A stretch of 64,000 bases of DNA from Mytilus trossulus (Eukaryota), in NCBI RefSeq assembly GCF_036588685.1, contig NW_026963354.1, positions 124,001 to 188,000 of the forward strand. The letters are read 5' to 3'. The position numbers and the translations under genes were made by a program. Below the pieces are notes generated by a model, which made no database searches, had not been told where the DNA came from, and worked only from the letters and a program-made list of their open reading frames with translations. This document shows positions 3,308-34,288 of this stretch, piece after piece (the stretch's first letter is position 1; each line of letters begins with the position of its first letter).

Positions 3308-6300
3308 TTATTCTGAGTAGGACTGTTGGCTGTCACTTCCATCGGAACTACTGGAAGATGGTGGTCGGACTGAAAATAAAGGTCAGAAGTTTTTTAAAAC
3401 AATAAAATAAAATTCATAAAAGAGGTTTTGGCTTGCTGATATGTCTGCCTAATGTGAGATTTAATTAATTGTTTGACGATTGCATTTTGTTAAAATAATA
3501 AATTTACATGTTTTATACATTGTCTATAAATTACATATATATCATCATCAGTTTGATGTAAAAAATATACTTTCAAGTCCCTAGCGATATGCTAACTCAT
3601 TTTGAGATCTTGAGATATCATCACCACTAGATTTTTTCGTTTAATCCCATCTTCAGTTTTCATGGTAGTGTTTCATTTGTTTGTACTTTCACTGTCTTTG
3701 TTTTTTGCAATTTTCATTTAAGTTTTGAAAGTCCCCTTGAAATCATTTACATCTTTTATATTATATAAACACCTGTCTATAATTTAAAGACAATAGGTTG
3801 CAATCTAATATCTTGATTATTTGTGTTGCTGGATTGCTGTCTCATTGATCACCAAACATCTTTTAATTTTTCATATGGAGAAAATCTTTAGAGTTTATAC
3901 ATAAATTGTGTTAAGTCATACAACAAAGTTGAACAAAGTAATTTTCTGTCACAAAATGTCATAGCTAAGATGAACAAAGTAATTTTCTGTCACAAAATGT
4001 CTTAGCTAAGATGAACAAAGTAATTTTCTGTGGCAAAATGTCATAGGTTAGTTTTCTGTTTGAATTGTTTTACCTATGTTATTTTGTCTCTTGTGAATAG
4101 TTGTCTCAGTGGCAATCATACCATATTTTCTTTTTTATAAGTAATGTTCTGTCACAAAAGGGCATACCCCAGAAGTGCAGGCTTAATAAGAGCTTACAAA
4201 CCTTATTATTATTATTTTTTGTGATTTTTTTCACAATTACATTTGTATAAAGAATATATAAATAGTTGTCCTTGGTTCATGTCAGTCAAATTTGGGTGTT
4301 TTTTTTTAATTGTTTTGTTAAAAATTAAGAAGTAATTTTGTTTGTTTGAATTGTTTTATATTATTCATGTCAGGCCTTTTATAGCTAATTATACAGAAAG
4401 GTTTTTCTCATTGTTGATGGCCATACATTGGCCTATGATTATTCAAATGTTCAAATGGATAGTTGTCTCATTAATTGTCATACCACATTATTCTCATATA
4501 CTATTTTTTAAATGTGTCAATTCCAAGGGATGGCATTTAAGGTCAAGAAACGTAAATGGGCTATGTCGCAGATTTTTGCTAAAAATTTGCATACAACCTT
4601 GGCTCATTGAACTACAACTGAAAATCTAAAAAATAATACATTTATCTCTTTTATTATCTGAAAAATTGCAGATTGATTTCTTTTAATATGGGTGAATATT
4701 TGTATAGAAAGCACATAAAATCGGCAAAAAAACTTCAAAAATTTGTCTAAAAATCGCCAAATCTCTTATTCTACTCCATAGATTTTTCTTAAAAAACTAT
4801 ATATTGTTGACATATACATTTCTGTTTAAATGATATAAAATAATCATAGGGTCACCGACTTCGTTTTTTGTCTAATAATCAATCTGTTACCTTAAGCTTG
4901 TTGGTAGTAAAAAACGTCAAAAATCAAAGTTTTACAGCCTGCAACGCGATAACGTTACGATTATTTCGACGTTTTGTTGGATTTTTTTACAAAGAACGCA
5001 ACTTTGAATGATGAATATCGTAAAAACGAAGTCGGTGACCCTATCTTTATTTTGCATCATTATAACCGAAATTTATGTATCAACAACAAATAGTATTTAA
5101 AGAAAAATCTATGGAGTAGAAATAGAGATTTGGTGATTTTAAGACAAATTTTACAAGGGTTTTCGCCGATTTTATGTGCTTTCTAAACAAATGTTCACCC
5201 ATTTTTTGTAAGAATTCAATCAGTAATATTTCAAATGATTATTGAGATAAACGCAATATTTTTTAGATTTTCAGTTGAAGTTCATGGAGCCAGAGTTGTA
5301 TGCCAAATTTTACTGAAATCTGTGACATATATATAGGAAGATGTGGTGTGAGCGCCAATGAGACAACTCTCCATCCAAATAACAATTTAAAAATAGCCCA
5401 TTTACTGTAACTTGACCTTAAGTTACAATTGATTGATCTGTTTGTTATAAGAGGAAAAAATTCAACTCACCAAATTTTGTAGCTTTCTTTTTGCCCTTTT
5501 CTTTTTTCTGTCTAGCTCTAGCATTTTGGAACCAAACTTGTGCCACCCGTTTGTGTATTCCTGCTTTATTAGCTATTTTCTCCATGGCTTGTGAGTCTGG
5601 GTTTATTTCAAGTATAAAGTGTGACTGGAGTATTTGTATTTGGTCCTCGGTAAAACAGGTACGTGGTCGTTTGGCTCGGGGTTTTGAGGTTCCATCATCA
5701 TGATCATTGCTACTGGTATCTGTATGTATTGTTTCTGGTATACTGGCTCCTAAAAAACAAGTTCAAATCTTTAATCCTGATTAAATCCTAGGGATGTAAA
5801 ATTAAGGCCCAGTTGTTGAATTCTTAAATCATCTATGGAAACTTCTGTAATCCATTGATTTATTTAAGAAATTAAGTATATGTCAGATTAAGATGTCCAT
5901 CCTGACACTGTCCAATATTGGTCTCATTAATTACTGTAAATTCAGAAATTAATGCGAGGTTTTTATTATTGCGAAAAATGCAACTAAGTTGTAAACGCAA
6001 TAATTTAAACTCGCATTTAAAAATAATTTATATGAATTTAACAGGATTTTTCTCAAAATGTCAAAATCATAAAAATTAAAATCGCATCTAAGTCTTAAAT
6101 GACAAAATCGCAATAATAAATGCACGAAAAAATTTCTGAATCTACAGTAGTAGTATTTGATAGAAATCTGTATGATATATGTCTCTACATATTATATAAT
6201 GTCACCAAAATACAACATACAATTTGTTTAATTGATTTCATTGATGGGTTTTATTACATACATGACATATTGAAGCATCTAACCAATTATTCTTACATTT

Positions 6301-9300
6301 ATACTTATCAGACCTAATTCCAGTCCAAAATGTAATGAACATTGATCATGTTAATGTGCCAATTACATGGCTCAAAATATAAGTATCAATTTAAAAGTAA
6401 ACTTTATGGTGAAAAGATCCCCTTGTGAATATATCAGATGATACCCAAATATCTGTAATTTGTTGTAGAAACATTCATTGAATTTGTGGAATTTTATATC
6501 AAAATTATTACCAGATGGTAAAAGAAATTGTACTAAAGAATTTTCTGGAATATAAATTTGTATGAACTGTATCTGTGATTCCCCTTCAACTTTTCTGACA
6601 TTTTAAAGAAACAAGTTACCATATACAGACAATAATGCAGTCAAACTTCAATGTGTATGTAAAGCAAGTATAACTTACTGTGGATAAATTATTATTTGTT
6701 GGATACCAATTTTCGTGGGTACAGGTGAACCACAAATTCAAATGTTCAACAAATATCATATTTTCAACAGGCTTTATATACAGAGAGTGGCGAAACCACA
6801 AAATCAAATATCCACGAATATGCAAGTTTTCAGTAATCCACGAAAATTGATACCCATGAAAATAAATGAATCCACAGTAGTTACCTCATGTTAAAAGGCC
6901 TCACTATGCCACTTTTGAATGAGGAACAGTACCATCAGATAAACCTTCCCTATCTTTAAGATTTTCAAGCATATGCTGTGTGAGCATTTTCTAGCATATC
7001 TCACAATCTGATAAAAGGACCTTTTCTTAATTAGAATCAGTTAAAAACTATGTAATAAAATTCTAATATAATACATGTAAATAAATAGAGGGTGAAAACT
7101 TCAAAAGTGTTAATTAAACAACCATTAACCCCTGCTTTCAATAAAATGTCAAGTCATTTCTATCCATTCTTTCATCAACTTATTATCAATAAAATTGAGA
7201 ATGGAAATGGGGAATGTGTCAAAGAGACAAAAACCAAACCAAAGAGCAAAAATAAGGCCACCAAAAGGTCTTCAACACAGCAAGAAAAATTTATACCTGG
7301 AGGTGTGCCTCAGCTGGCCACTTAACAAAAATGTGTGTATTATTTAAGGAAAAATGGAAGTTTATAGTTCCAACAATTATTTCACCAAACTTACCATCAG
7401 TGCCATCAGAGCTATTCCCATCCATACTTTCAATAAAATGTCTTTTACACAGAAGTCGTTTGCCGAGAAGTCCAAACTGTTCTCCCGTAGATAATGGTTT
7501 GTCACATGTTTCACAATAAAAACAAGCCACATGATATATCAAATCTCTGGCTTTACGTACCCAGTCTTCTCCACGAATGGTTTTACTACAATTAGCACAA
7601 TCGGTTCTGTTGAATTCTCTGGAAAAAAATATCCAAAATATAATCATTAATGTTTAGTCAACTGTCAAAATTGCTGCAAGGATCCATGTTGGATCATTTT
7701 TTTTTAAGTCTAAATTGGTGAATGGCCTCTGATTTTAGCAACAACAAAAAGTTAGTTATTAGTAACAACCTTCATGTTTGACCATTTATAGCAAATTATA
7801 TGTAAAATCTCAAAATAAGTAATGTCTTGTAAAATTTGGCCAAACAGTCACAAACGTTTAAAAAAATATTTTATACCTTTGAAATTTAACATTTGAAGCA
7901 AAAGAATTTAAAATTTAATCAAGTTATAAAACTATAATATCAAAATAGTTCAGAATCTGGTCTGACCCACTAAACAAGCCCCTGTGTACCACCTAAAATA
8001 TTAACCAAACAACAATCAATCAAGCAATGTATACAACCTGATTATGTTATCATGATAATAGCTGGGTTTATTTTATAAACACAGATTCGAAGAAAATAAT
8101 TGTAACTTTTCAAGCACACCTTTGAAATCACTGCTCTATAACGATATTAACTGTTCAAGTACACCTTCATTGCTACTACTAACGAAGTTACAAAATTTGA
8201 AATGTGCAAACTTCAATGAGATGCCAGTAAACTTACTCATTTTTACAGAAGACACTGCCATCTTTGATGTAACATGATGAATCCCTGTCTAAGGCCGTCT
8301 GACAAAGAGAACATCTAAGACAGTGGATATGCCAGTGGCGGTCATTGACCTTGAGGAGATGTCGGTCAGTTATCAAATCTCCACAACCATAACATATGTC
8401 TTTTTCAGTCTGAAAAAAAATTAAACATCAATTTACAAAATATCTACTTTTTCATAAATCGAGCAGAGGTAACCCTTTTAAAAGCTATTTAAACTGGTTG
8501 GTCTTGCCAGGTCAGTAAAAATTGTGTTTGGCGTATTAATATTTTTGATTTTTTTTTTAAATAAGCAATAGACATGATAGACAATTTGGTTTAAATTTGC
8601 CGTTTATATCGATATTAGGTTTGTCAGTACTGGACGTCACATAAAATATGTTCCTACCATATTATTCATCTCCATAACGTTACATCTCTTTCCGAAATAA
8701 CAGGTCTAACTAATGTCTCAGTGTTTGAGGAGGGACTCTCACTTGATATGACCTTTAATCATCGTATATCATTTTCATTTTCCGGTAATTTTTCTACGAA
8801 ATAACACGTATTTGTATATGTTCTATACAAATCCTTGGAAATAATAACCGTTCACACTAAGATTATAACAGTTATTGTCCTGATCGATATAATTGAAACC
8901 TATACTTTTTTGCAAGAACCCACGAGTGTGTAGTGTGTTACTGTAAAGTACATTTGACAGAAAGAAAAGCCTATAAATCGCAGAAGGATGCACGTGCTGT
9001 TAGGGCCAATGGCATTACGCAGGATGTGTGAACGGCCTAGGTTTATCAATGACCCGTGGTCACGACAGCCCAGTTCTGTATGTTAAAGAACCATTACATC
9101 AACCCTATAAAATCCTACAAGACTTCAGTGCGTCTCTGTGTATGACTATACGTCAAGGTTTCCCTCATTGTTGAAGGCATTATGGTTGCCTATAATTACT
9201 TACATCCACTTTATTTGAACTTAGGTTGATAGTCTCATTCAGAGGCCCCTTTTTGGGAAAAAAATTGGTTGCTTATATAGGGAATCACTGAAGCATGACA

Positions 9301-11261
9301 AGAGCAGGCCCCCTCTTAGGTCAGTTAGTGGGCCACCACTTATGAAAATTAGGGAATCACTGAAGCGTGACTTGAGCAGGCCCCCTCTTAGGTCAGTTAT
9401 TGGGCCCCACTTATGAAAATTTCTAGATCCGCCACTGTCATTGGCAATTATAATTCTCTGTTTTTTTATATCAATCCTTCTATCGTTTTTGCTGTCTTAC
9501 GCCTGACATCAATAAAACATCAGTTAATAAAAATAACCTTTTACAGCAAAGTGTGCAAAAATGAAATAGACGGTCGTATGGTTAAATAAATCTCCCCGTT
9601 CTGTGTGGAAAGAAACAGAATTGGATTGGTGTCTTTATATTCAAATTATTAATTATATCATAGAATCAGAACTTTAGTAAAAATCATACTCGTTCGATTC
9701 ATCAATCCTGATAAAATCACTTCTTTTTAAATTTTAATTTTAATCGCGCGATCTTGTCTGTCTAAATTTACCGTTAACATGGATAATGCATTAATTTGTT
9801 TGAATTATTGACGGAGACTGGACTTTAAACAAAATCAATTATTGATGTTATTGTCTTGACATTCTATTCTCTTAGTGGGTCCATCTTCCATCAATAGGTT
9901 ATTTGGAATGTATACCCAGTTAAGACTAAAAAATAGTTTTAATTTTTACTGATGACAACTTTGTGTCAGCCTTAACTTTTACTATATCAATGTTTTCTTA
10001 GAATACGGTCTGATTCTTTAGAATTCAGTAAAAATGATTTATTTGAATAGTCTGACCATAACTACTCTATTCTAAGGCTGCCATATTGATTTAATGATGG
10101 ATTTGTGTTCTGTATCTAGAGTCTGAGATACACGTGTGGAATCGATTTAATACTCCAAGACCAACTGAAGAGTGTCGGATTCCAACTATAATCAGTAAAC
10201 AAAGAAAATTGTCAACAAAGAACTTTTTACTTTAAATTTAAAACATATTTTTTTCAAAACACAATACTGAAATAGGTTAAAATTATTTTACACAACATAC
10301 ATGCAACATGTAACCTTACCATTATTTTGGCGGTTTTGAATTACAAAAATATCAGAATATGGTTATAATCTAAAGACACAATTCACACATTTCTGTTCTC
10401 TGTTGGAAGTCGCTTATCTGGTTAATTCTGTCTCCGTATCCCTAAAGCATCTATTCAATATTCGTGTAAATATTTACTGATGTAGTATTTGTGACGTAAC
10501 TCCAGAACATTTGCTCTGCATCTGGATACGCTGTTCTCTGCACGCGCCGTGTGTGTATATGATATGTGCGTGTGTTGTGTTTCTAAGGAATTTTATTCAG
10601 AAACGTCTGGCTTTCCTCACAATAAAATCCAAAGTATCAAAGATACAACCACATAAAAAGGGTTTGTCGATAATAAAATTTTCTATAAATTATTTGCCAT
10701 TAGCATTATTTAACATAATAATGAATATAATAATATTTTCCAATTTTAAAATAAAAGAAAGCTTTATAGAAAAAATTCTCAGAAATTTTGATTTACTACC
10801 ATATCAATATTTTTTTGGTAAAAAATAAAAAAATAATAAAGAAATGAAATAATCTAGCTATTTCTAAATCTATATATTTACAGATGAAACCTGTAATATA
10901 ATTTTGGAAAAGATATAAAATAACTTTTTTAATATTGGAAAATGACAAGACATGAATTCAAAAAAAAATCTATTAATATTCAGTTAATAATTGAAAATTT
11001 ACTCTCGCGTAAAATACATCTGTAAATGAAGCCTTTGTGTATTGACATAATTAATAATTAATGAGGACAGGTGATCGAAAGAACTTCCTTTCTATACAAC
11101 AGGTAATAATAGATACCAAGAAAATCAATATTAACCGTTAATGCAAATACCTTTAAAAGTGCAGCGATGGAAAACGGGTAATGGTCCAGTGAATTAGAAT
11201 CTTCATCAGAACCAAATGTAAAATTTCCAGAATCCTCGAAAATTCGGGTATCTAACTTCAT
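3308..11261 (-). CDS. Awh: LIM-homeobox protein, Arrowhead/Lhx6-8-like, copy A (~282 aa); exons 11261-11151, 8409-8237, 7618-7395, 5749-5471, 3369-3308
   Basis: All introns GT-AG, phases 0/2/1/1. LIM1 CYGC..WHIHCLRCSLC..FCKN; LIM2 CANC..DWVRKARDLIYHVACFYCETCDKPLSTGEQF; homeodomain KRPRTCFTEDQIQILQSHF..NPDSQAMEKIA..KRVAQVWFQNARARQKK, close to Awh. AATAAA at 3227-3222. Confidence 0.9.
4541..5417. mobile_element. Foldback non-autonomous DNA transposon with TTAA target site (Kolobok-like), in intron 4 of Awh-like A
   Basis: TTAA|GGTCAAG ... CTTGACC|TTAA. The arms are long imperfect inverted repeats; the right arm is interrupted by a common-repeat fragment at ~5331-5392. Confidence 0.75.
5934..6147. 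mobile_element. MITE with TA flanks (Tc1/mariner-like)
   Basis: TA|CTGTAAATTCAGAAATT ... AATTTCTGAATCTACAG|TA. Confidence 0.75.
6678..6877. mobile_element. MITE with TA flanks
   Basis: TA|CTGTGGAT ... ATCCACAG|TA. Confidence 0.7.
9240..9437 (-). mobile_element. Short GC-rich MITE (CAGTGGCGGATCTAG end) with an internal ~60-bp duplication; related copy at ~49158-49300
   Basis: Ends in TCTAGATCCGCCACTG; interrupts a common repeat and is flanked by TCATT on both sides. Confidence 0.55.
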
Positions 11262-12629: not shown

Positions 12630-12805
12630 ACCGCATTTAGGCTTTTTGGTAGCGGTAGCAGCCAGTTTTAATTGGCGAAGGAAGCCGGGGTGCCCTGAGA
12701 AAACCACCGACATTCGATATGAAAACTGATACAAGCGGGATTCTAACTCGCAACCTCAGTGTTGACGGGCTAGTTAATACAGTAGTAACAACTTAGGACA
12801 CTTAA
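12630..12805 (-). mobile_element. tRNA-derived SINE, degenerate
   Basis: On the minus strand, a B-box-like GAGTTAGAATCC is followed by GGTGGTTTTCTCAGGGCACCCCGGCTTCCT..CCAATTAAAACTG, a core seen in mollusc SINEs. Related 3' tails at ~1810-1905 and ~28836-28897. Confidence 0.6.
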
Positions 12806-12865
12806 GATACATGCGAGTGAGCAGAGTAGATAGTTTCTTGATAAAATAGCTAAAATATGAAAGGC

Positions 12866-14042: not shown

Positions 14043-14635
14043 CCTTCTCCGGAAAAGCGTTTTTTCCGAAACAGATAAATCTCCATATTAGTCAACATAT
14101 GCCACTATTCCGATGCAACCAGAACTAAATTGAAATTTCTCATTAGGATGAAAAAGAACACCTGTCGCTTCAACACGTAACCGTTAGGTTTATTTTATAG
14201 GTTTATGGGGGATTTTTTTCCATTAGGTTCATAGATCAAAGAGAAAGCTATAGCTAGTAATTTTTATACTAGTAATTCGATTAATAGACAAAAAGCATGT
14301 GAAAGATCTATATTATCATAAACCAATACATGTAGTTACATAGAAGACACTATTGTAATGATAACAAATATTGAAAATAACATGTGTGAAACCAGAATTA
14401 CTATTATATAAATTAGAATCTTATACACAATTCTTTGGTTTAGACACATAAATAGTAGTTTTTAACTATGAGGACAGATACCCTTTCTCGAATATAAATT
14501 TAATTTCATGTTTGATAACTATACTGATATGAATGTAATAATATTTATGTTGTTATTACAAAAATATGATAAGAATTGGTTTGTTTTATCTTTGAAAAAA
14601 ATCTCGACATATGCTTTTATAATCCGATATTTTTT

Positions 14636-15540: not shown

Positions 15541-15651
15541 ACAATATGATTAAGTTCAAAGTTTTTTCTCAATCCGAATAAACAATGTAAATTAAGTTGA
15601 GAGTACTTTTAATTATTATTTTTTCTTTCGTGTGGTTTTTTTCTATTCAAA

Positions 15652-17254: not shown

Positions 17255-18730
17255 TGCGTGTCATATCCAATCAGTTTATGTTTTGTGTCATGTCCTATCC
17301 GGCATGTAATGATTGAGTGTCATATCCTATCCGTCATGTAATGGTTGTGTTTCATATCCTCTCAGTTTAGGAATTTTGCCATATCCTATTCGACATGTAA
17401 TGAGATTGTGTGTCATATCCTCCTAGTAAAGGAATTGTGTGATATCCTATCCGTCATGTAATGATTGTGTCTCATATCCTCTCAGCAGAGGGATTGTGTC
17501 ACATTCTATTCATCATATATTAATTGTGTATCATATCCTCATTATAGCTAGGAGTTTTGCTGTATTATATCCGGCAAGTAATGATTGTGTGTGATAACCT
17601 CTCAGTAAAGGAATTGTGTCATAACTTATTCGTCATAATAATTGTGTGTCATATCCTACCAGTATAGTAATCGTGTCTTATCATATACTTGTATAAAATA
17701 TTACTAAAATTTTACAGTTTAATTACATTTGAAAATATAAAAATCCGTGATAAAATGATCCTTTCAGTATAGGTAGTGTGTCATATCCTCTCAGTATAGG
17801 TAGTGTGTCATATTCTCTCAGTATAGGTAGTGTGCCATATCCTCTCAGTATAGGTAGTGTGTCATATCCTCTCAGTATAGGCATTTTGTCATATCCTCTC
17901 AGTATAGACATTGTGTCATATCCTCTTACCATAGGCATTGTGTCATATCCTCTCAGTAAAGGTAGTGTGTCATATCCTCTCAGTATAGGCATTATGTCAT
18001 ATCCTCTCAGTATAGGTAGTGTGTCATATCCTCTCAGTATAGGCATTGTGTCATATCCTCTCAGTATAGGTAGTGTGTCATATCCTCTCAGTATGGGTAG
18101 TGTGTCATATCCTCTTAGTATAGACATTTTGTCATATCCTCTTAGTATAGACATTTTGTCATATCCTCTCAGTATAGGTAGTGTGTCATATCCTCTCAGT
18201 ATAGGCATTTTGTCATATCCTCTCAGTATAGACATTGTGTCATATCCTCTTACCATAGGCATTGTGTCATATCCTCTCAGTATAGGTAGTGTGTCATATC
18301 CTCTCAGTATAGGTAGTGTGTCATATCCTCTTACTATAGGCATTGTGTCATATCCTCTTACTATAGGCATTGTGTCATATCCTCTCACTATAGGTAGTGT
18401 GTCATATCCTCTCAGTATAGGTAGAGTTTCATATCCTCTCAGTATAGGCATTTTGTCATATCCTCTCAGTATAGACATTGTGTCATATCCTCTTACTATA
18501 GGCATTGTGTCATATCCTCTTACTATAGGCATTGTGTCATATCCTCTTACTATAGGCATTGTGTCATATCGGCTCTCAGTATAGGCATTGTGTCTGTGTC
18601 ATATGCTCTCAGTATAGACATTATGTCATATCCTCTCAGTATAGGTAGTGTGTCATATCCTTTTAGTATAAACATTGTGTCATATCCTTTCAGTAAAGAC
18701 ATTTGTCATATCCTCTACGTATAAACATTG
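17255..18730. repeat. 27-bp satellite (GTGTCATATCCTCTCAGTATAGGTAGT); degenerate part 17255-17690, homogeneous part 17760-18730, resumes ~19676-19795
   Basis: Tandem copies; the 27-bp period explains the stop-free ORFs on both strands. Confidence 0.92.
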
Positions 18731-18732
18731 TG

Positions 18733-19678
18733 TATTATTCCACTGCATAGCAAAATCAACATTTGATTGGTTGAAACTTTGACACGTGACGTCGAACAAA
18801 ACTTCGTATTCACATCTGAGTATCATATTCCCCTCTGACATGTCGGGACTAAATCGTGCGATTTTATGCGCGGTTTATGTACATAACGTCTTGAACTTTT
18901 TATTTTCTAAATAGCAATAGCAAATATCATTATCGTGTTCAAATTTATTTCAGACGTTGAAACAAAAAGACTAACTAAATAATCAATGTTTATCCGTACT
19001 GTTTATCAATATGTATGTCGTGTTCAGTAATGAAAACAAGCCGAATAAGTCTGAAAAAATGCCGGTATGCAAACTAATATTTGAAGTTCAGATAGTATAC
19101 AAAGCTTAGGCAGTGGAATAAAACATTCATTTTCCTTGGCCTCGGGAGATATTAAGATTTGTTCACCCTCGAAAAATCATATTTCCATCGGGCAGAGCCC
19201 TCGTGAAATATGAATATTCTTGGGTGAACAAATCTTCTTATCGGTCGTCCCTCTGTCTATATTACTCTGTTCAGCTCTTAATATTATTCCGTATCATGTC
19301 GTTGTGACGTCAAATACGTTGACCCGGCCTTAATAACTTTGACCCGGACTTATCAGCGACGTCATAATGTTTGAACCGACGTTAATAACTTTGACCCGAA
19401 CTTATCAAGTCATCTTTTGTGTACAGGCGAAACTAAGAAAACACTTCCGAAACACGCAAATATAGCCCGATAAATCGATTATCAGATTATCTGCATATTG
19501 ATATTGTAAAATATCAGCTGCTTGGCATTATATGAAGACTTTTTGATCTCGTTCGCTACGCTCACTCGACAAAAAGCTTCATATCATGTCTCGCAGCTGA
19601 TATTTTACGATATCAACTTGCAGATGACCTGATAATCGGTACATATCTCCCTCAGGCACGGGAAATAAATGTATAATA
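18733..19678. mobile_element. Nested hairpin-rich non-autonomous elements inserted in the 27-bp satellite
   Basis: ATTCCACTGC/GCAGTGGAAT inverted pair; long hairpins at ~19155-19236 and ~19481-19633; the satellite resumes afterwards. Confidence 0.6.
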
Positions 19679-20973
19679 TCCTCTCAGAATTGGCGTTGTG
19701 TCATATCCTCTCAGTTTACGCATTGTGTCATCTCCAATGCATGTAGGTATTGTGTCATATCAAATTCGTGTTGCGAGTATGTGTCATATCCTCTCCATCA
19801 AAACTAGTGCACCATCTCCTGATTTTGAACCTTGTAAAGTAGCTTCTAGCAGATTACAGATTATTAAAACAATGATCAAAGCCTAACCTGCATAGAATCA
19901 TGACCAGTTCCTCTATCAATTAAAATTTAAAAACCGGCAACCAAAAATGTTATTATTTAACAGTCTTTTTTCAGGGTATGTATTTACTTTATACTCAAAA
20001 GAGTTTTCCTGTTGAAGAGATCTTTTCTACTGAATTTTACATTTCGTTCATTTGTTGTATTGTAACACCACTGTCCCAGGGTTAGAGAGAGGGTTGGGCT
20101 AACATTTTAAACCCCGCCATGAGGAGAGGACAGGGGTGAGGGAGACAGACAGAAAGGGAGTGAGAGAAAGGAGAAAGGGGTAAGAGAAAGGAGAGGAAGG
20201 CTGGGAGAAAGGAGAAATAATAAAATATCTCTCCTTTTAAAAAATCATCTAATATTTCAAGAAAAAATATCTCAAAAGGAGATGTTTTATTCTATTGGGA
20301 GAAAGGAGAACGGGGGTAGGAGAAAGGAGAAGAGGGTGGGAGAAGGGAGAAGGGTACCACCCTGTCCTCCCCCTCCGCCATAGTCTGTATGTTTATATAT
20401 ATCTGTCCCAAGTCAGGAGCGTGCAATTTAGTGGTTGTTTTTTGTTGCTGTGTTACATATTTTTTTGGGTACACTAATTAGGCTATTAGCTTTCTCGTTT
20501 GAATTGTTTTAAATTTGTCATTTCGGGGCCTTTTATAGCCGACTATGCGGAATAGGCTTTGTCCATTGTTAAAGGTCGTACGGTGACTTAATTATAGCTG
20601 TTAGTGCAGTCTGTGGGAAGTTGTCTCATTGGTCGCAACCATACCACATTATCTTTTTTATCGACAGATCGATACAGCCCAGTGTTCAATTTAAAGTAAG
20701 ATTATGGTGTTTGTTTGTGTACTGTATTTTGGTTTTTGGTAATACTGTATTATGTTTGTTTCAATAGTAATGCAATATTGTGGGTTTTATTTGTTGTCTC
20801 ATCATATAACGTTGAACATGTTGAATGAAAACGAGAATATTCTTTTTATACATTTAATATCAGTTACATTTTCAATAAGTTAACAATATAAATACAAATA
20901 AATAACAGTTATATTTACAAATAAAATGTGTGTTCACTTTTTAGCACGTTATATTAGTACGTAGATCTTTGTT

Positions 20974-23082
20974 TTAGTCGCTGTAAGTCAGGTCATCTAA
21001 ACTATCAAAGCTGTGTTCTGAGGAACCTACAAAACAAAAAGTAAATACTTATGATTAACAGTATAAACAGTGAATTAGAATAAAAAAAACTTAACACACA
21101 AAATTCGACGAGATGGCACCAATACTTCTTGAAGTTCAGTATTGATAATATAATATAGAGAGGATGTGGTCTAGAGCACTTAAAATGAGACCAAGTGATT
21201 AGTGTCGTACAAAGTGTAGCAAAGATGCGAGTTCGTTTCCCGTCGGGAAAAAAATAGTCAGCATGAAAATCTATCTCTAACACTGTTCCGTTCAAATGAT
21301 CAGACTAACGCAGAAAATAAACATTGTATAAAAAAAATTATTTTTTAAAATGGTTAACTAATATACTTACTGCATTCTTTGGGAACTGGCGAGACCGTGT
21401 TCATCTGCATATTTCTCTTGGATCGTGATCGTGCGTTTTGGAACCAAACTTGTGCAACACGTCTAGTGACTCCAGCTTGGTCGGCAATGGTATCCAAGTC
21501 TTGAGGATCCGGGTTCTGTTCTACATTGAAGTAGGACTGGAAAACATGAATCTGCTCTTCTGTAAAAGCTGTACGCTGTCTCTTGGCTTTACGTTTGCCT
21601 AGACGCTCTGAAAATGTAAATCAATATCGTAGAATGTTTAGGACAAACATTGTTTTGCATTTAATATTTTTTTTCTAAATGTGTTGTAAAACAAATTTTC
21701 AAATAAAAAATTGATTGTAAGTTATACTGAAATGTGTATGATTTTTGTGGAAAGAGGCGCAGACTTTAAAATACAAGTAAATCAAATATATTTGGAAACA
21801 AATCTGCAGGAATATGATGAAAATACAAAAGTTCGCGTTTATAGATATAGGGAGATGTGGTATGAGTGCCAATAAGACTGTGACAACATTACATCCAACT
21901 TATTAATATAAATCATTATAGGTCAAGGTACTGTCTTCAACACGGAGCCTTGACTCACACAGAACAGCAAACTATTTTTTACTTAATAAATAAATGCAAA
22001 AGAATAAGCAGACTTACCGTCACCAAGTTTGTTGCCTTGTAAAACTTGCAGATAGTGGATCTTGCAGTGCAGTCTGTTGTCATGAAGAGCAAACTGTTCC
22101 CCTGTTGAGAGTTGTCTGTTGCAGACACTGCAGCTAAAGCAGTTTAAGTGGTAACAGTTGTCATGTGCTTTCCTGACCCAATCGTCACTGGTGATCGTAA
22201 CATTGCATTTGGAACACTGTGGACCAAATTCCCTGAAAAATAAAAATAATAAAATTAGTATACAAGTTGATTGAAAATCGCGTCGTAATTGTAAACCTTT
22301 TGAATTGATGTGTTTAAGCATTTAAATGTAAATTTATAGGCACAATATGCAAAACTGATGTGTCTTTAAATATATTTCCACTAAATGGGAACTATAAAGA
22401 CGAAAACACGCGTCATCCAAGGTGGTACCGTCTCAATATTTCGAACTTGTTACTCTTTATAGAGATTATTTCTGTATCGATATAAGTGTACTTATATTAT
22501 ACTTACTCTTTTCTGCAGTAGATGTTTCCCCCTCTGACGTAACAGGTGTTGTGGTTGTCCAGTATGGTATGACAATGTGAGCACCGGAGACAGGTCGGAT
22601 GCCAGGACTGGTCATTTAGACGGAGGACGTATTGGTCTTCTACAACTCCATTACAGCCGTAGCAAACATGTACAGTAGCCTGTTAATATAAATAGTAGAA
22701 TAATGAAATACGGAAACATTAGAGTTTTATAAATTAATGATAAAATTTAAATTGAAAACTACTAATTCATTAAGTGGATTGAAATAATATTTATAAAACG
22801 AATTTATTATAAAAAAATATATTACAGCAAATAATATATATTAGTGAAATGAAATAATATGTTACTTTATCTAATTGGTAAAATAAAAAATTCTTGTCGG
22901 TTCTATTTTCAAATTAACACGGAATAGATAATTTGTATATTTACCGTTGGGAATGTGTATTCAAAAACCGAGTCCGGAGATGAACAGTTTTCATCTTCAT
23001 AACTTGTACTGCACTGGAATGTAAAATTACCGGAATCTTCAAACTCAAAGCTGTTGTGTGCAATGTCGGTTAAAGTACCCAT
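20974..23082 (-). CDS. Awh: LIM-homeobox protein, Arrowhead/Lhx6-8-like, copy B (~271 aa); exons 23082-22945, 22679-22507, 22232-22018, 21607-21371, 21026-20974
   Basis: GT-AG introns with the same phases as copy A; two LIM domains; homeodomain KRQRTAFTEEQIHVFQSYFNVEQNPDPQDLDTIADQAGVTRRVAQVWFQNARSRSKR. Confidence 0.9.
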
Positions 23083-23119
23083 GGTAGATGTATGTATATA
23101 CTTGGAGGACTGTTGGATG

Positions 23120-23362
23120 GAAATGTGATACTTTTGCTGGTGGAATATGGGGTTTTATAGGAAGTTAAAATAGTGTTCACTACTCTCATAGGGGTGAGTA
23201 CAGTTAACGGTACTGTCAGCGTGGGGTAGGGACACTTTACCTACAGTCTATAGTACTCTCAGCGTGGGGTAGGGACACTTGACCACTACAAACAAAACAT
23301 CACTGAACATCCCTGATCATTAATCAGTGGTCACCGTTAATTAACTTTTAATTAATACTCAA
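23120..23362 (-). promoter_or_regulatory. Proximal promoter of Awh-like B: TATAAAA at 23159-23153 and a cluster of homeodomain-type sites at 23315-23360
   Basis: Nearly identical to 34315-34513 upstream of copy C, while the flanks diverge. Confidence 0.7.
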
Positions 23363-24399
23363 ATGGGAAAGCAATGTATTTTTACATGAAAAAAACATGA
23401 AAAAGTTTTAAGAAAATATTACAAAAAATGTTTTCTTACATAATCAATTAATATGTATCATTTAAAATAGTATTTTTAACTTGCAACGGAATTACCTTTT
23501 TTTTTAATTACAAATACATGAAATCCCATTAGATTTCGTTTATTATTCTGGAATATTTTATCACAGTGCATATCCAAAATTCAAAAATATATTTTAGTAC
23601 AGAAAATAGAATCGAATGAATGGCACGACATATCTTTGATACTACAATATATTTTTTTATATAATGTATAGAAATATATATATATATTATATGATATATA
23701 GAAATAGCAAAGTTTTCATTATTTATAACGTAATGAAATTGTTTCGAGGCTAATACGGGAATAAACTGTCAAAAGACAACATCAATATTACAAAAGTTAA
23801 AAATGTTATGTTTATTTCGCTGACATGAAGAGGCCACATTCTTGGGGGCCCAAGATATAGTGTTTTGTTACATGTCTTTTAAGATATTACCACACCTTAT
23901 AAGGATTTCGATTTAATCCAATACATGTAATTGCATTGTCCGTAAGCTGCAGCAACAGTTTTCAGTTGGATGAAAATTTTGAATTTTTCCATTTACTCCC
24001 AATATAAAATTAATAGAAAGATGATTGCCCACGAGACAACTATCCATCAGATACCATAGAATGAGGTGATAACATCTACGTGCGGCCTGCAAAGAGGAAC
24101 AAAAATACAAATCATGTTTCGAGTACGGCTTATTCATTTTCATTCTTCAATAAAACTATTTCCTACATTTATATTTTTAAGAAGGCACAATATTTATTTG
24201 TAACATTTGAAGATTTGCAAATGGCAGCCGCAAGTTCGAAAAATATTCAATGAAAATTATATCTATCTCTGTTCTTTCAGCAACATAATGTTTTTTTTCC
24301 GTTGGGCGTATCCATTATACATACATTACATTGTAAGCACTCTCAATTTTTTTCGATTTAAGAGTTTGAATGTCCCTTTCGTATCATTTGTCTCTCTTT

Positions 24400-25447
24400 A
24401 TTCGTGGAGTATCGGTTCACCTCATTTTATTCGTGAAATATCTTTCGCCTCTCTTTATTCGTTTAGTATAGTTTGTCCCTCTTTTAACGTGAAGTATCGT
24501 TCGCCGCTCTTTTATCGTGAAGTATCTTTCGCCTCTCTTTATTCGTTAAGTACAGTTTGCCCCTCTTTTATCGTGAAGTATCGTTCGCCGCCTTTTTATC
24601 GTAAAGTATCTTTCGCCTCTCTTTTATCGCGAAGTATCGTTCGCCTCTCTTTTATCGTGAAGTATCTTTCGCCTCTCTTTTATCGTAAAGTATCTTTCGC
24701 CTCTCTTTTATCGTGAAGTATCTTTCGCCTCTCTTTTATCGTAAAGTATCTTTCGCCTCTCTTTTATCGTGAAGTATCTTTCGCCTCTCTTTATTCGTTA
24801 AGTATAGTTTGCCCCTCTTTTATCGTGAAGTATCGTTCGCCGCTCTTTTATCGTAAAGTATCTTTCGCCTCTCTTTATTCGTGAAGTATCTTTCGCCTCT
24901 CTTTATTCGTTAAGTATAGTTTGCCCCTCTTTTGTCGTGAATTATCGTTCGCCGCTCTTTTATCGTAAAGTATCTTTCGCCTCTTTTTAATTCGTAAAGT
25001 ATCTTTCGTCTCTCTTTATTTGTAAAGTATAGTTTGCCCCTCTTTTATCGTGAATTATCGTTCGCCACTCTTTTATCGTTAAGTATCTTTGGCCTCTTTT
25101 TATTCGTTAAGTATAGTTTGCCCCTCTTTTATCGCGAAGTATTTTTCGCCTCTCCTCTAACGTAAAGTTTATCGTTTGCTCTTCTTTTATCGTGAAGTAT
25201 CTTTCGCCTCTCTTTATTCGTGATCTTTCGCCTTTCTTTACTCGTGAAGTATCGTTCGCCGCTCTTTATTCGTTAAGTATATTTCGCCCCTCTTTTATCG
25301 CGAAGTATCTCTCACCTCTCTTTATTAGTGAAATATCTTTCGCCTCTCCTCTATCGTAAAGTATCGTTCGCCGCTCTTTTATCGTAAAGTATCGTTTGCC
25401 TCTCTTTATTCGTAAATTATCTTTCGTCTCTCTTTTATCGTGAAGTA
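24400..25447. repeat. ~29-30-bp minisatellite (TCGCCTCTCTTTTATCGTGAAGTATCTT)
   Basis: About 35 tandem variant copies. Confidence 0.9.
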
Positions 25448-27308: not shown

Positions 27309-27690
27309 GCGCGTCTTGCGTACTAAATTATAATTCTAGTACCTTTAATAACTATGTACGCCACTGGGTCGATGCCAATGCTGGTGGACGTTTCGTCCCC
27401 GAGGGTATCACCAGCCCCGTATTCAACACTTCGGTGATGACATGAATATCAATAATGTGGTCATTTGATACAAATTTCTTGATTACAAAACTTTGAATTT
27501 TTCGAAAAACTAAGGATTACCATAGTCGTATTTGGTACAACTTTTAGGAATTTTGGATCCTCCATGCTCTTCAACTTTTTACTTGCTTGTCTTAATAAAT
27601 ATTTTGATATGAGCGTCACTGATGAGTCTTGTGTAGATGAAACGTACGTCTGGCGTACTGAATTATTATCCTGGTACCTTTGATAACTAT
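27309..27690 (+). mobile_element. Retrozyme-like monomer (335-nt period) with ~47-nt terminal direct repeat
   Basis: 27309-27355 is repeated at 27644-27690; the repeat starts at the hammerhead stem III/cleavage site. Confidence 0.7.
27613..27656 (+). ncRNA. Type I hammerhead ribozyme (minimal, PLE/retrozyme type)
   Basis: Stem I GCGUCA/UGGCGU; core CUGAUGA (27619-27625); stem II GUCU-UGUGU-AGAU; GAAAC; palindromic stem III ACGUACGU; GUC cleavage triplet ending at 27650. Confidence 0.8.
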
Positions 27691-30669
27691 TTGTACTTGT
27701 ACAAATAAAAATTTCCTGTTACCCCGCTTATATCCCGAGAAAGCGATGATATGGGTAGTTTTTATGCGCAGCAGTTCATTTTAGCTCCTCTTTGAGATCC
27801 AAACAAAAGTTTCAAGTGCCGGGTGTCACAACTTGCAGTATACACTAACATACATTGGTGGATAATATAAATTTTCTTTTTTGGCGACTGCACTATGGTC
27901 TACAGTGACATCGGAAGTTGCGTGGCACCAAATCAACATTACAGGTAAGCAGGGGCGGATTTAGGCGGGGGCGTGGCGGGCGTGCGCCCCCCCCTAAAAT
28001 TTGCAAAGCATAGGTTGACTTCAACATATTTAAGTATCAGAAGAGACCATTCAATCTAAGATTTATTTGATAACTATATCATTTCAAAATATAAAATTGA
28101 TCCAATTTTTATGGTCTTTAGATAAGAAAATAAACTATTGTATGGAATAATGCTAATCATAAAAAAATATTAAACGTTTGATTTATATTTCGCGCTTCAT
28201 TCTGAAACACGCACTGTCAGCAACATGAACGTCTTCGTAGCATCAGATCTTTCACGATCCTTTTCACGATCTTCAAAAATGCGGTACGTGATCTTTCACG
28301 ATCCAAAAAATCAATTTTGTGTGAATAGTTCTTTATTTACCAAGTTTCAGATTATATTTATACAAAATAACTATGAGAACCGTTTAATTAATTCAAATAC
28401 AATGCCCTTATTTTGATAAACGTAGTTTATTTAGTCGAATTTGTGAAAAAATCGTGTTTGTTTACATTTTTTATGTCATTGAAATGTCGAGAAGCAATCT
28501 GCCTTTTGTCGTTTTGTAATAACTGTGTACTTTTGAAACTTGATATTCTGACATACTGATCATACTGTTGAACCATTTTGACAGACAGTTTTATTTTGTC
28601 GTAAATGTGTCTGTGTAATTAATTAAATTAGAATATTTACTGATCTTTAATATGTCTTCTCGATTAAATATCTTTCACGATCCGTTACCAGAACTTTCAC
28701 GATCGTCTCTCAATACTTGACCGCCGCTAGATATTCTTTCACGCCCATTTCTCTCGATAAACCGAATGACACCCGTGATATACATCTATTATATGTAATA
28801 CTATACAATCGTTATACATATCATAATATGCAATATCGCCGCGATATAGCTATTTTGTGCTCATGCGGCGTAAAGCAACCAACAATCAATCAATCAATAT
28901 ATATGCAATATTCAAAAGTAATAAAGTCCAAACAACACTACACATATGCAACCTCTTACACATTAAGGTATAATCGCCTATAGATTTTTTTTATCTTTTC
29001 TTATTTTAAAGTCCATTTTAAGTTATATATTTTATTTTCGGCGTGGCTTGGTATTTATACATCCCGCTATTGTGTTATTGAACTATGGACTTTTCTGTTA
29101 TTCTTGTCTCTTATCTTGCTTATATACTTTGTCTATATGTAAGGCGTCAAAGTATAGGAAATTTGAGGACATCTGAGCAAAAATGAAAGCAAAGGCCATT
29201 TGAGCGGGACAGATAATGATAGAAATGACGAAGGAGTATTTCCTTCGTTCACAGATATAAAATGTTGCCCCTGCGCACCACAAGGAGGCGGAAGTTTGTT
29301 ATAGAAATAATAAATGAGAGGCGGAGTTTATAATGCACACAGTGTACATCATAATTGAAGGGAAAAACAGCCCTTTCATAAAAGTAACCAGACAATGGCA
29401 TTATTAACAAGTCAGTTCGTGATTGAAATTTTAATCACAGGCTTACCATTACACTACCATTAACTAGCCAGAACTCGTGTAAAATTAATCGGAAGTAAAA
29501 TAAAAATAACATAGTAATAATTATTTTAAAATTTGGTCTCTCTCTTCTTACTTTCTTATACAAATATTTTCTTTATTCATATAAAAGTATCACAGGAAAT
29601 TTTGCTCAAATGTCCTATTATATCATCCTGGCAAATTTAATATTCCGGTGCTCAAATGTCCTATTATAAAATCCAGGCTATCATTCCGGTGCTCAAATAA
29701 CAAATTTTGTGCATTTTATATTTTCGCTCAAATGTCCCTTGACAGTGTCTACATCATGTATAAGCCGTTTTAGATTTTTTGTTGGAATAGTTTGCGTTTA
29801 CAGTGATTAAGATTAAAATAAAATGTTGACTGCTGCATCCCAAATCTTGACATTTTACCTATTGTTATTGTATGTTTTGCTCACTCATTGTTGTTAATGT
29901 AGATATCTATGCGACTGTCATACAAGTAACTATAAACCAGGTTTAATCAATCGTTTTCTACGAAAGGAAATGCCTGTCAATCATAGCATTATCAATTATC
30001 CATGAAAATTTCAGAGACACTCGAATAGACAGACATGTAAACCTAAATATTCATTCCAATAACCAAAAATAATTGACATATTGGATGATCTCATGTGTTC
30101 CTGAAGGGTAAGACTCTTCTCCTCTGAAATTACTGGGCCAATAACTGAATGTTCCATAGGGTATCTAGTTTGTAAACCTTAATGATTCCATAAACCAAAA
30201 ATAGTCGACCTTTTGCTTATAGTATACAAGACACAGACCAATCCCTTAAAACTTCATATAGACCCAATATAATGAATCACGAAAAGGAAGCAAGGTCAGA
30301 CGTACCCTGCCAGACAAACATGTTCACCTTACATTTATAAAATGCATCTAATATAGATGACCTTACAGCAGACATAATAAAAAATATAGTAGCATAATAA
30401 TTAAAAAAAACGACCAATAAGCAACAAAACGACATTAAACAATGAACTGCACAGATAAAGGTCACGGTCAGACGAAATCTACAACACAAACATGTACACC
30501 TTACAATTATTCCATGTATTAAACAAATATATCATATATCTAATTATTCTGCTGCTTACAATATCTGAGAAACGGCCATATTCACGTAACTGTGATCATA
30601 TTAACGATGAACGAAATGATACTCATAATAAGTGGTTCTTAGTTATTTTATTTATATTTACTGTGTTCG

Positions 30670-31790
30670 TTCTTAGACCCAATGTGGTGGCGAGCTATCG
30701 TCGTCGACGTTTACTATTCCAAGAATATTCTCCTCTGAAACGACTGAGCCAAATACCTTCAAGCTTTAACTGAATGTTCCTTAGAATATCTAGTTTTTAA
30801 ACTGTATCTGAAGATTTGATCCAACACAAAACATGGGTGCCATGGCTATTTTTAGAACACAGGGGGTTAAATGCAGTTTAGGTCTATATAAAAACAAAAC
30901 ATTTAGAGGAAATTTGACATGGAGTAAAACTGTTCAATATTTCGAGATCTATATCAGCCATCAGACGAACCGAACAACCCAATTTTTGGTTGCATCCACT
31001 AAATTGGTAATTTTAGGGAAATTTTGCAGTTTTTGGTTGTTAACTTGAATACAGTTAAAGGAAGAGATAAACTGTAAGCTGCAATAATTTTCAGCAAATA
31101 AGATATTAAAAAGGTTAATATGAACAAAATTGTTATTTGACCCCCATAAGGAGGTATCATAATGGCCCTTTAAAGACAATTTTGTTCATATTTACGACCA
31201 TTTGGAAATCTTTTTCTTTGAAACTACTGGGCCTAATACTTCTAAACTTTTACTGAATGCTCCGCAATGTCTCTTGTGAATAAATTGTATCTGAAGGTTT
31301 GATCCTTCATCAAACATGACGGTCATTCCTAAATATAGAGGTCATTCCTAAATATAGAACATAGGGATCAAATGCAGGTATTGTTTTAGATCTCAAAATT
31401 AAAGCATTTAGAGCAACCCAACATGTTTAACAGGCGAAAATCTATCAGCAGTGAACTTTCAACCGAACCGAAAAACCCATTGTTATGTTGCTGCCACTAA
31501 ATTGATAAATATTGTAATGTTTGGCGATTATCTTGAATATTATAGAAGTTAAATATAAACTGTTATAACGTCTTAAAAGGTTCAGCGAAGTAAGATCTAC
31601 AAAATAGTTTATAATTGTAAATTGACCTCTTTTCGCAAAATTTTCGCCCTTTCAAGACGATTTAACATTCTTTGTATATCTTGAATAAACTTTAAAAAAT
31701 TGTTTGCTATGAAACTGCTGCACTGTTTAGCCTAACTAGAGATGAATGAGTTTCTGAGTATCTAGTACAAAGTTTGCATTTTATTCCCTT
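30670..31790 (+). mobile_element. Degenerate Helentron/HINE-like element with internal repeats
   Basis: (GTC)n microsatellite near the 5' end; repeated CTCTGAAACTACTGGGCCAAAT...AACTGAATGTTCC-like blocks (~30730, ~31215; also ~30120). Confidence 0.45.
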
Positions 31791-32138
31791 GCACGTCACG
31801 GCACACTCTAAACTAAATTTTATATTTTGTTCTTATGTTGTACTGTTATGCCACTGTCCCAGGTAAATGGGGGGGGGGGGGGGATCCCGCCACATTATGT
31901 ATTTATTGTCTCATTGGCACTCATACCACATCTTTATTTTTCCATCCATTGTGGTTAGCATCACATTTTCATGAACATTATTCATAGGAAAAATAAAACA
32001 AGTATTTCTATTTCTACATTTTATATAAGATACATCATCGATAACAATATAAATACAAATAAATAACAGTTATTTACAAATAAAATGTGTGTTCACTTTT
32101 TAGCACGTTGTATCATTCGTATGATTTAGATCTTGGTT

Positions 32139-34288
32139 TCAATTGCTGTAGGTCAGCTCATCTAAACTGTCAAAACTGTGTTCTGGGGAACCTGCAAAAC
32201 AAACAAAATATAAGTTTTAGTATAGTATAAAGAATAATTTTATTATTATAAAAAATAAAAATATAAACTGGATAAATTGTGCAAAGGCCACTTTAAAAGA
32301 AAAGTCTATTTGCGGAGTTGACAATGAAATACTATTTAGCCAGTATAATACAAGATCTATGTGTTCTTAACTTGTATTCAAATGATTCAGATTTATTTGG
32401 TAATATGTATTAAAATGAATCCAATTTACTGTTAATTTCGTATTAAAATGAATCCAATTTATTTGGTAAGACTGTATTAAAATGAATCTAATTTATTTAG
32501 TAATACTGAATTAAAATGAATCCAATTTATTGTTAATACTTACTAGATTCTTTCGAGACAATCGATGCTGGAGATCCCATAGAACTTTGAATATTTCTCT
32601 TGGACCTTGCACGTGCATTTTGGAACCAAACTTGTGCCACACGTCTTGCGACTCCAGCTTGTTCTGCGATGGTATCCAAGTCTTGTGGCTCTGGGTTCTG
32701 TTCCACATCGAAGTAGGATTGAAAGATATGGACCTGATCATCTGTGAAAGCTGTACGCTGTCTCTTGGATTTACGTTTTCCAAGGCGCTCTGAAAAAGAT
32801 GATACATATATTTAGCTTGGATATTTGTCTTCGACTGTGCAGAATTTAGATTATATTCCTTTTAAAAGGTACTAAAATGTTACTTTAATTTATATTATTA
32901 TGATTGGTTGTTAATAAACTGAAAATAATGTTTTAATAAATTTTATCATAATTAAACGCAAATTATAAGGACACCTACCATCGCCAATTCTGTTGCCTTG
33001 TAAAACTTGTAGGTAGTGGATCTTACAGAGAAGTCTGTTGTTATGTAGAGCAAATTGTTCCCCTGTAGAGAGCTGTCTGTTGCAGATGTCACAGTTGAAA
33101 CACGCCAAGTGGTAACAGTTGTCGCGTGCTTTCCTGACCCAGTCGTCACTTCGGATCCCTACGTTGCATTTGGTGCATGGTATGCAAAATTCACTGAAAA
33201 ATACAAAAAAAAAATAATAATTATTAAGTATTAATGGTTTATATATATATATATACACATAAAAAGATATGAAAGGAATGATTATCAAGCTACCTACAAA
33301 ACCAGGTTCAGGCCACTATTTTCTACATATTAGGAGTACCAAGTCAGAAATAGGACAATTATTATCCATTCGTTTGATGTTTTTAGAGTTTGATTTGGAG
33401 ATTTGATTTCCGTTTGATTTATTCACGTATTTGGATGATTTTTTTATGATTTTTTTTTACATGTGACTTCCAAGTATAGAAACTGTTATCATAGTAAGGA
33501 TGGTGAGAACAGTCATATTAGTTTGCAGACTTTGGGATTTCAGGTTTCGTTTATTCAAATATCTTCTTCTTGCATACCCTGTTATGTCTGGTTGTGTCGA
33601 CTTTAAAATAAAATTTTAGGATATAGACACAGATGGATTTCGCTTCATCTAACCAAATTCAGCTAAAGTAACAGAAGAGTTCTTATTGTATACTTACTCT
33701 TTACTGCAGTAGATGTTTCCCCCTCTGACGTAACAGGTTTTGTGGTTGTCCAGTATGGTATGACAATGGGAACACCGGAGACAGGTCGGATGCCAGGACT
33801 GGTCATTTAGACGGAGGACGTACTGATCTTCCACAACTCCATTACAGCCATAGCAAACATGTACAGTAGCCTGTCAATGACAATGAGTAATTTATATTAA
33901 AATTACTTTTAAAACAGAATAGAAATATGCATTTATATGTTGATAATTTGGATAGAAATAATATGAATATAAAAGAAATAATTCAAGAAAACAAAAATAC
34001 CAGAGTTCTCAGTTTCTTCAAGTAACTGTTATATTTACAAATGAAAATTATAATTAAAACTTTAAAATAAATTACACGTCGTTTAACCTTTTTTTTGTAA
34101 ATATTTATAGATTGATAATCAATATAAAATATCAGTATGTTTTCACTTACCGTTGGAAATGTGTATTCAAAAACCGAGTCCGGAGATGAACAGTTTTCAT
34201 CTTCATAACTTGTGCTGCACTGGAACGTAAAATTTCCGGAGTCTTCAAACTCAAAGCTGTTGTGTGTAATGTCGGTGGATATGCCCAT
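32139..34288 (-). CDS. Awh: LIM-homeobox protein, Arrowhead/Lhx6-8-like, copy C (~274 aa); exons 34288-34151, 33870-33698, 33193-32979, 32789-32544, 32191-32139
   Basis: GT-AG introns with the same phases; close paralogue of copy B; homeodomain KRQRTAFTDDQVHIFQSYFDVEQNPEPQDLDTIAEQAGVARRVAQVWFQNARARSKR. Confidence 0.9.

Follow-up and report, generated by a model that had tools for sequence, protein, structure and literature searches.

LIM-homeodomain proteins form a combinatorial code for cell identity, and one of their families comprises Arrowhead (Awh) of Drosophila and Lhx6/Lhx8 of vertebrates. According to the accessible part of the paper that defines the LIM homeobox (Lhx) class (PMC2828406), the LIM-homeodomain subfamilies are single-copy in fly and worm. 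Table 1 of Paps et al. 2015 (PMC5322547, available in part) lists two Awh genes for the Pacific oyster, Awh1 and Awh2; the accessible supplement identifies Awh1 (CGI_10025669) as the divergent copy and Awh2 as canonical, and an excerpt of PMC10396302 reports oyster 'awh2' as specific to trochophore apical neurons. Mammalian ETCHbox genes (TPRX1/TPRX2, LEUTX) are the nearest parallel in evolutionary mode, described in the available part of PMC8208926 as divergent homeobox duplicates in tandem arrays that undergo repeated gene conversion. Here, we describe three tandem LIM-homeobox genes, named A, B and C, in a 64,000-nucleotide stretch (the window) of the mussel Mytilus trossulus, contig NW_026963354.1, positions 124,001 to 188,000. 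We consider it fairly probable that these are three intact Awh-family genes that trace back to an old Awh duplicate from which oyster Awh1 also stems, were multiplied in tandem in the mussel line, coexist with a canonical Awh elsewhere, and likely bind TAAT sites.

A six-frame scan combined with exon models gave three complete LIM-LIM-homeodomain genes, all on the minus strand, each with five coding exons that encode in order the N-terminus, LIM1, LIM2, the homeodomain and a short tail (Table 1). The initial annotation, made from the bare sequence, had reported a same-strand trio with shared intron phases of 0/2/1/1 and a LIM1 exon (exon 2) of 173 nt, intact throughout, and the exon models confirm this: all 12 introns are GT-AG, and the frames of A, B and C are open, without internal stops or frameshifts. 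The nine domain exons all pass the curated Pfam cut-off (LIM, PF00412, twice per gene, and Homeodomain, PF00046), and this domain content places A, B and C in the Lhx class as the accessible part of PMC2828406 defines it. B and C are close paralogues and A is more distant, as had been proposed (230/271 identical residues, 85%, for B/C; 122/256, 48%, for each of A/B and A/C). The nonsynonymous divergence between B and C (dN) is 0.079 and the synonymous divergence (dS) 0.585 (dN/dS ~0.13), which indicates purifying selection. A tblastn search of the window returned no fourth copy and no pseudo-exons. The intron cores of B and C align no better than shuffles in any of the four introns, so the two are not haplotype duplicates, as the initial annotation had argued on the same ground; assembly duplication was ruled out by these introns and by separate B and C orthologues in other Mytilus. 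An N-terminal FEDSGNFTF stretch, possibly a short functional motif, is common to the three proteins, the remainder of exon 1 having diverged.

A, B and C are identical to three RefSeq proteins of M. trossulus named 'LIM/homeobox protein Awh-like' (Table 1), all from one 394,918-bp contig, and are thus already annotated, though only automatically. Orthologues of B and C with neighbouring accessions are found in M. edulis, M. galloprovincialis and M. coruscus (14/14 members of the protein cluster), with no M. californianus protein in that B/C cluster; orthologues of A are found in all four of these species. A conventional Awh elsewhere in the genome, which had been suggested as a possibility, was borne out by the protein clusters: M. 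trossulus has a separate canonical Awh (P0098/XP_063424693.1) that is 66% identical to Drosophila Awh, and in M. coruscus and M. californianus, the species with contigs listed separately, the canonical gene and the cluster are on separate sequences. Protein identity between A, B or C and the mussel canonical Awh is 46–47%. The description of the genes as fast-evolving holds for their long stem branches only, since A is now conserved like canonical Awh (96.8% versus 97.5% to M. californianus), conservation is somewhat lower for B and C (92–93% versus 97% to M. coruscus), and B/C divergence is constrained as noted above. In M. edulis, RefSeq isoform X3, P0009 (XP_071124511.1), has a C-type start on a B-type body, a join that reflects either read mis-mapping or read-through splicing.

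Comparison of the protein sequences identifies A, B and C as members of the Arrowhead/Lhx6-8 family. They share with Drosophila Awh, vertebrate Lhx6/Lhx8 and XP_063424693.1 the LIM-LIM-homeodomain order, the zinc ligands, the LIM2 motifs WVR.A and LSTGE, and the homeodomain residues R5, V47, Q50 and N51. Unlike canonical Awh, they exist as three tandem copies with a short linker between LIM1 and LIM2, F16 in B and C, and S54 in B. All of their named top matches, among the matches listed, are Awh/Lhx6-8. Trees were computed from 176 LIM+LIM+HD columns under LG+C20+F+G4, with 48, 29, 26 or 25 of 75 rows once the most divergent unnamed rows, sponge rows and redundant rows had been dropped, taking Lhx2/9 and Lhx3/4 as the only outgroups, Islet, Lmx and Lhx1/5 not being included. 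In the 48-row and 29-row trees, A, B and C are nested in a mollusc Awh clade (support 94/92 and 94/91) in which they form a clade (94/85 and 92/73) sister to oyster Awh1 (96/86 and 90/84), with divergent abalone copies next out from the mussel and oyster group (93/63 and 91/71). B and C without A still join oyster Awh1 (94/89). The approximately unbiased (AU) test rejected a clade of A, B and C with Lhx2/9 (p 0.028), a clade with the mussel canonical Awh (p 0.026 and 0.013), and a clade of the abalone copies with gastropod canonical Awh (p 0.030). Homeodomain changes D23E, T38A, T45A and S52A occur in A, B, C and oyster Awh1 and are absent from 12 canonical lophotrochozoan Awh proteins; T38A, T45A and S52A are also present in the main abalone copies, and T45A was found in 0/16 other fast or outgroup rows. 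The Awh/Lhx6-8 identity proposed at the outset is thus upheld by the named matches, the trees and the rejected Lhx2/9 clade. The proposal of a lineage-specific expansion is weakened, since the copies group with oyster Awh1, a mussel-only origin is weakly rejected, and oyster and abalone hold divergent copies; on these comparisons a 'Mytilus-specific' label is doubtful.

Like A, B and C, oyster Awh1 is an additional, divergent Awh that coexists with a canonical gene; it has the same four homeodomain changes and the sister position in the trees. It differs in being listed as a single gene, in its 8-residue linker and in its lower divergence (42/60 homeodomain residues identical to canonical). 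Four Haliotis species each have at least four to six divergent Awh-like proteins that share 70–98% identity within a species, map to one scaffold and have near-consecutive accessions; these counts come from 15 of 27 main-cluster members listed, and the tandem order from accessions, not DNA. As in the mussel, several divergent copies (220–223 aa) lie on one scaffold in addition to a canonical Awh. Unlike the mussel genes, they are more numerous and have a normal linker and short tails, and their link to the mussel genes has only the support given above. One unspecified 'LIM/homeobox protein Awh-like', not attributable to a paralogue, is among the differentially expressed genes of abalone female gonad in the accessible part of bioRxiv 2025.08.18.670794. 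A literature search, with most subscription papers outside its coverage, found no account of a Mytilus or Haliotis Awh cluster. The accessible parts of PMC9716669 and PMC13407887 are silent on mollusc Awh, and that of PMC7566022 does not name Awh. Three further clusters of divergent Awh-like LIM-HD paralogues among European Nucleotide Archive (ENA) proteins (P0261, P0266 and P0291, four members each) form their own long-branched clade in a FastTree tree and are possibly another independent expansion.

We propose that Awh would have duplicated before the split of mussel and oyster, perhaps before that of bivalves and gastropods, and that one duplicate would have diverged in a burst that included T38A, T45A and S52A. 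In the mussel line this derived copy would have given rise to A and the ancestor of B and C, and later to B and C, the canonical Awh staying elsewhere. A duplication older than the mussels appears rather likely; one old enough to include the abalones is plausible but falls short of being probable. Several observations weigh against an old duplicate. All derived copies are long branches, for which the tree tool warned of long-branch attraction. A without B and C takes no settled place inside the bivalve Awh group, and the AU p values are only 0.01–0.03 and share the bias of the model. Canonical-type genes of Pinctada and Octopus also fall close to the derived group. Among the matches listed for scallops, pearl oyster, clams and octopus there is no divergent second Awh; under an old duplication, these groups must have lost theirs or been sampled incompletely. 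A FastTree tree of all 75 rows drew Lhx2/9 among the long branches, and was set aside for evident long-branch attraction.

The same warnings, the unplaced A and the bivalves with no second copy listed also favour a duplication of the canonical Awh in mussels only, the grouping with oyster Awh1 and abalone then being due to long-branch attraction and convergent homeodomain changes. Over the whole protein A is no nearer to oyster Awh1 than to canonical Awh (46.1% versus 46.4%), S52A recurs in copepods, an acoel and Lhx2/9, and the N-terminal 'SSPDS' stretch of B and C is present in the mussel canonical Awh too. We regard such an origin as unlikely, though it is the strongest competitor, given the AU rejections of both canonical groupings and the presence of T38A, T45A and S52A together in mussel, oyster and main abalone copies. 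Descent from the mussel's own canonical Awh may thus be called weakly rejected.

Canonical Awh proteins combine a near-invariant homeodomain with T45, S/C52 and an 8-residue linker. A, B and C lack this combination: they carry A45 and A52, and retain 30–36 of 60 canonical homeodomain residues, where Drosophila keeps 54. The homeodomain deviations described in the initial annotation are present as stated, with positions 13, 16 and 54 being I/L/A in A, I/F/S in B and V/F/A in C, although they differ in weight. F16 and S54 each occur in 0/174 canonical-type Awh proteins and are real departures, whereas I or V at position 13 occurs in 41/174, the mussel's own canonical Awh among them, and was discarded as a peculiarity. 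The residues R5, V47, Q50 and N51 direct recognition of a TAAT core in DNA. V47, Q50 and N51, like R5, are kept in all three homeodomains, so the target class is probably the ordinary TAAT(TA), and A, B and C would be transcription factors that bind TAAT sites in an expression domain of their own. Each LIM domain has the eight zinc ligands of the Lhx class; the Cys/His ligands are invariant in the alignments, but the final ligand position of LIM1 is occupied by Glu in A and B and by Asp in C. Glu is an allowed ligand.

In the sequence alignments, the best character uniting A, B and C is a loss in the linker, counted from the last zinc ligand of LIM1 to the first Cys of LIM2. It has five residues in B and C and six in A, compared with eight in 196/269 scored LIM-LIM-HD proteins. 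Linkers of six residues or fewer were found in 32/269, of which 26 are cluster-type and six other, and every one of the 26 scored cluster-type proteins is two to three residues short. In all five of the solved LIM-HD structures that were aligned, the linker has eight residues and thus includes the three extra ones. The loss sits at the exon 2/3 junction in A, B and C, and a micro-exon restoring the linker was absent from the one contig that bridges B intron 2 and from transcript-sized contigs of A-type proteins. AlphaFold models of B and of a canonical Awh control, built from the same 44 sequences, differ here: the control has a helix at H96–103, and the corresponding segment of B has none and a predicted local distance difference test (pLDDT) score of 74, compared with 95–96. 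The LIM domains of B are modelled with high confidence and the LIM pair matches structures of LIM-HD:LID complexes. Three codons would have disappeared from the 3' end of the LIM1 exon of the mussel copy, a 9-nt move of the splice donor being the simplest route, and with them the helix closing LIM1, prior to the duplication that separated A from B/C.

According to the available part of PMC5496915, LIM-LID binding is modular and the spacer, which is plastic, contributes little to it. The LIM pairs of A, B and C would therefore probably still bind the cofactor Ldb/Chip, in an altered geometry. Alternatively, the short linker may disable the two-LIM grip on Ldb/Chip, and the copies would be cofactor-independent or competing regulators on Awh target sites that oppose the canonical protein. 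The consistency of the loss across cluster-type proteins and its rarity elsewhere, the helix missing from the model and the Glu ligand of A and B fit this proposal. It is nonetheless improbable in view of the modular binding, the remaining zinc ligands and confidently modelled LIM domains, and the 8-residue linkers kept by the derived copies of oyster and abalone. The naturally shortened linker provides a ready test of how much inter-LIM geometry weighs in Ldb binding.

Divergence between B and C is uneven along the genes. Nucleotide differences number 11/138 in exon 1, 8/173 in exon 2, 45/215 in exon 3 and 25 in the first 174 nt of exon 4, and fourfold sites differ at 4/36 in exons 1–2 and 15/38 in exons 3–4 (p 0.007). 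Over residues 9–103, B and C of M. coruscus are identical at 95/95 positions, whereas cross-species orthologues match at 92/95 and 90/95. Sites shared within a species versus sites specific to a paralogue are 3:0 in residues 9–103 and 2:16 downstream (p 0.0075, post hoc). We conclude from these patterns that exons 1–2 of B and C were likely homogenised by gene conversion, in tracts that must be short because the intron cores do not align. Weighing against this, low divergence in exons 1–2 could partly be constraint, and the regions were split after viewing the data. B and C would keep swapping short tracts, mostly in exons 1–2 and perhaps in the promoter block, as LIM2, the homeodomain and the tail diverge. 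In the accessible part of PMC8208926, ETCHbox conversion is centred on the homeobox, whereas here it involves the N-terminus and LIM1; ETCHbox genes also belong to the PRD rather than the LIM class, and their early-embryo expression has been shown.

The flanks of the genes contain candidate regulatory elements. About 200 bp upstream of B and C are near-identical and hold two TAATTA sites each (background 0.3 per 400 bp), which could reflect conversion or constraint. Paired TAATTA sites would permit feedback by these or other homeodomain proteins. No upstream element common to A and B rose above shuffles. In the 3' untranslated region (UTR), A, B and C each carry TGTAAATA 45–61 nt past the stop, just after TTTTAT, in agreement with the Pumilio element consensus in the accessible part of PMC5758885. 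The motif was sought post hoc, and its presence in B and C does not amount to two independent cases; TGTANATA occurs in 4% of 150-nt windows of the minus strand, and TTTTAT is common here (0.5 per 150 nt). The Pumilio-type elements, which would destabilise or time the mRNA, are a lead to post-transcriptional control and do not demonstrate maternal expression.

Contigs from four runs, each of a different study and chosen among 24 listed, were aligned to gene B; none of the listed runs is recorded as RNA and the RNA status of the four is guessed, some runs are probably of related species, they differ from the window at several letters, and the joined forms were not compared with DNA runs. Contig cover tracks the exons of B, except at a short interspersed repeat in intron 3, which draws hundreds of unrelated contigs. 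In these presumed-RNA contigs, introns 1 (265 nt), 3 (410 nt) and 4 (344 nt) are skipped exactly, each in 3/4 runs, and a single contig joins exons 2 and 3 directly across intron 2. A second contig class shows 23 and 28 differences from B, compared with 25 and 27 between B and C, and has the C letter at 9/10 listed exon-4 positions, which indicates that C-type spliced sequence exists too. Thus, the initial picture of intact, spliced genes gains exact splice joints for B and contigs with C letters, and for A indirect support from Logan contigs of 905–1042 nt that encode A-type proteins of 241–281 aa.

B and C share a strand, with C upstream, and RefSeq isoforms X1–X3 of M. edulis are C-type, B-type and C-start/B-body (P0014, P0015 and P0009), as would be expected if B and C were one locus in which C exon 1, or exons 1–2, is spliced to later B exons to give alternative LIM2/homeodomain ends. 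We find this very unlikely: B and C each have a complete exon set with a start codon and an upstream block of its own, near-identical 5' exons would yield such chimeras through read mis-mapping, and annotations of other species give two genes. Almost no weight can be given to descent from another LIM-HD subfamily (Lhx2/9), to assembly duplicates or to pseudogenes, since, although A52 is common with Lhx2/9 and the homeodomains of B and C are scarcely nearer canonical Awh (32 and 30/60) than Lhx9 (29 and 28/60), the Lhx2/9 clade is rejected, all named matches are Awh, orthologues occur in four species, dN/dS is low, the introns do not align and spliced contigs exist.

The cluster is therefore a real, annotated variant of a known family; new here are the short LIM1-LIM2 linker, the likely conversion of B/C exons 1–2 and the Pumilio-type element in three 3' UTRs. 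Its significance is limited by the presence of the genes in RefSeq and by the frequency of homeobox expansions in molluscs. Given single-copy subfamilies and a combinatorial code, the retention of duplicates under selection points to a new mollusc cell type or to a role at a particular stage. Should the copies of mussel, oyster and abalone form a single lineage, they would constitute an unrecognised mollusc gene family, missed among the novel clades of the oyster homeobox survey. A more speculative extension, which we think quite unlikely to hold in full, is that a second mollusc Awh lineage arose once and repeatedly formed tandem arrays (three genes in mussel, about five to seven in abalone) as a LIM-class counterpart of ETCHbox, the mussel members having lost the inter-LIM helix, changed their cofactor use, and been deployed in oocytes or early embryos under translational control of the Pumilio and cytoplasmic polyadenylation element (CPE) type.

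Table 1 Features of the Awh-like cluster and its surroundings, in window positions.
Feature	Position	Strand	Remarks
Gene A, derived Awh/Lhx6-8 paralogue, 282 aa	3308–11261	-	Exon model, Pfam, identical to XP_063419325.1
Gene A exons	11261–11151, 8409–8237 (LIM1), 7618–7395 (LIM2), 5749–5471 (homeodomain), 3369–3308	-
Gene B, 271 aa	20974–23082	-	Exon model, identical to XP_063419336.1, spliced contigs
Gene B exons	23082–22945, 22679–22507 (LIM1), 22232–22018 (LIM2), 21607–21371 (homeodomain), 21026–20974	-
Gene C, 274 aa	32139–34288	-	Exon model, identical to XP_063419335.1, C-type spliced contigs
Gene C exons	34288–34151, 33870–33698 (LIM1), 33193–32979 (LIM2), 32789–32544 (homeodomain), 32191–32139	-
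B exons 1–2	22507–23082	-	Likely homogenised with C exons 1–2 by gene conversion, intron 1 excluded
B upstream block	23115–23365	-	Almost the same as the C block except for a B-specific ~40 bp duplication; putative promoter role
B upstream TAATTA sites	23354, 23343	-	TATA-like CTATAAAA near 23160
C upstream block	34320–34520	-	TAATTA at 34507 and 34496; TATA-like motif
Pumilio-type element TGTANATA, A	3256–3263	-	45 nt past stop, just after TTTTAT
Pumilio-type element, B	20912–20919	-	55 nt past stop, in 3' UTR block conserved with C
Pumilio-type element, C	32071–32078	-	61 nt past stop
FEDSGNFTF motif in A	11240–11215	-
Short interspersed repeat, B intron 3	21840–21975
Haliotis divergent Awh-like proteins P0035, P0056, P0134, P0198–P0214			Apparent tandem array, larger than the mussel cluster
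HSPA12A-like gene	38562–43787	-	Upstream of C
Reverse-transcriptase fragments	near 40924–41900	opposite to HSPA12A-like gene	In an intron of that gene
Minisatellite, 27 bp units	17317–18733		A-B spacer
Minisatellite, 28 bp units	24381–25447		B-C spacer
Minisatellite, 20 bp units	35006–36114		Just upstream of C
Minisatellite, 28 bp units	45500–48150
Minisatellite, 50 bp units	58162–62379
Open stretch, 247 aa	54749–55489	-	No Pfam match

Beyond the cluster, the window contains a multi-exon gene of the HSP70 family, several large minisatellite arrays, and an open stretch that resembles the C-terminal end of a long interspersed nuclear element (LINE)-type element (Table 1).

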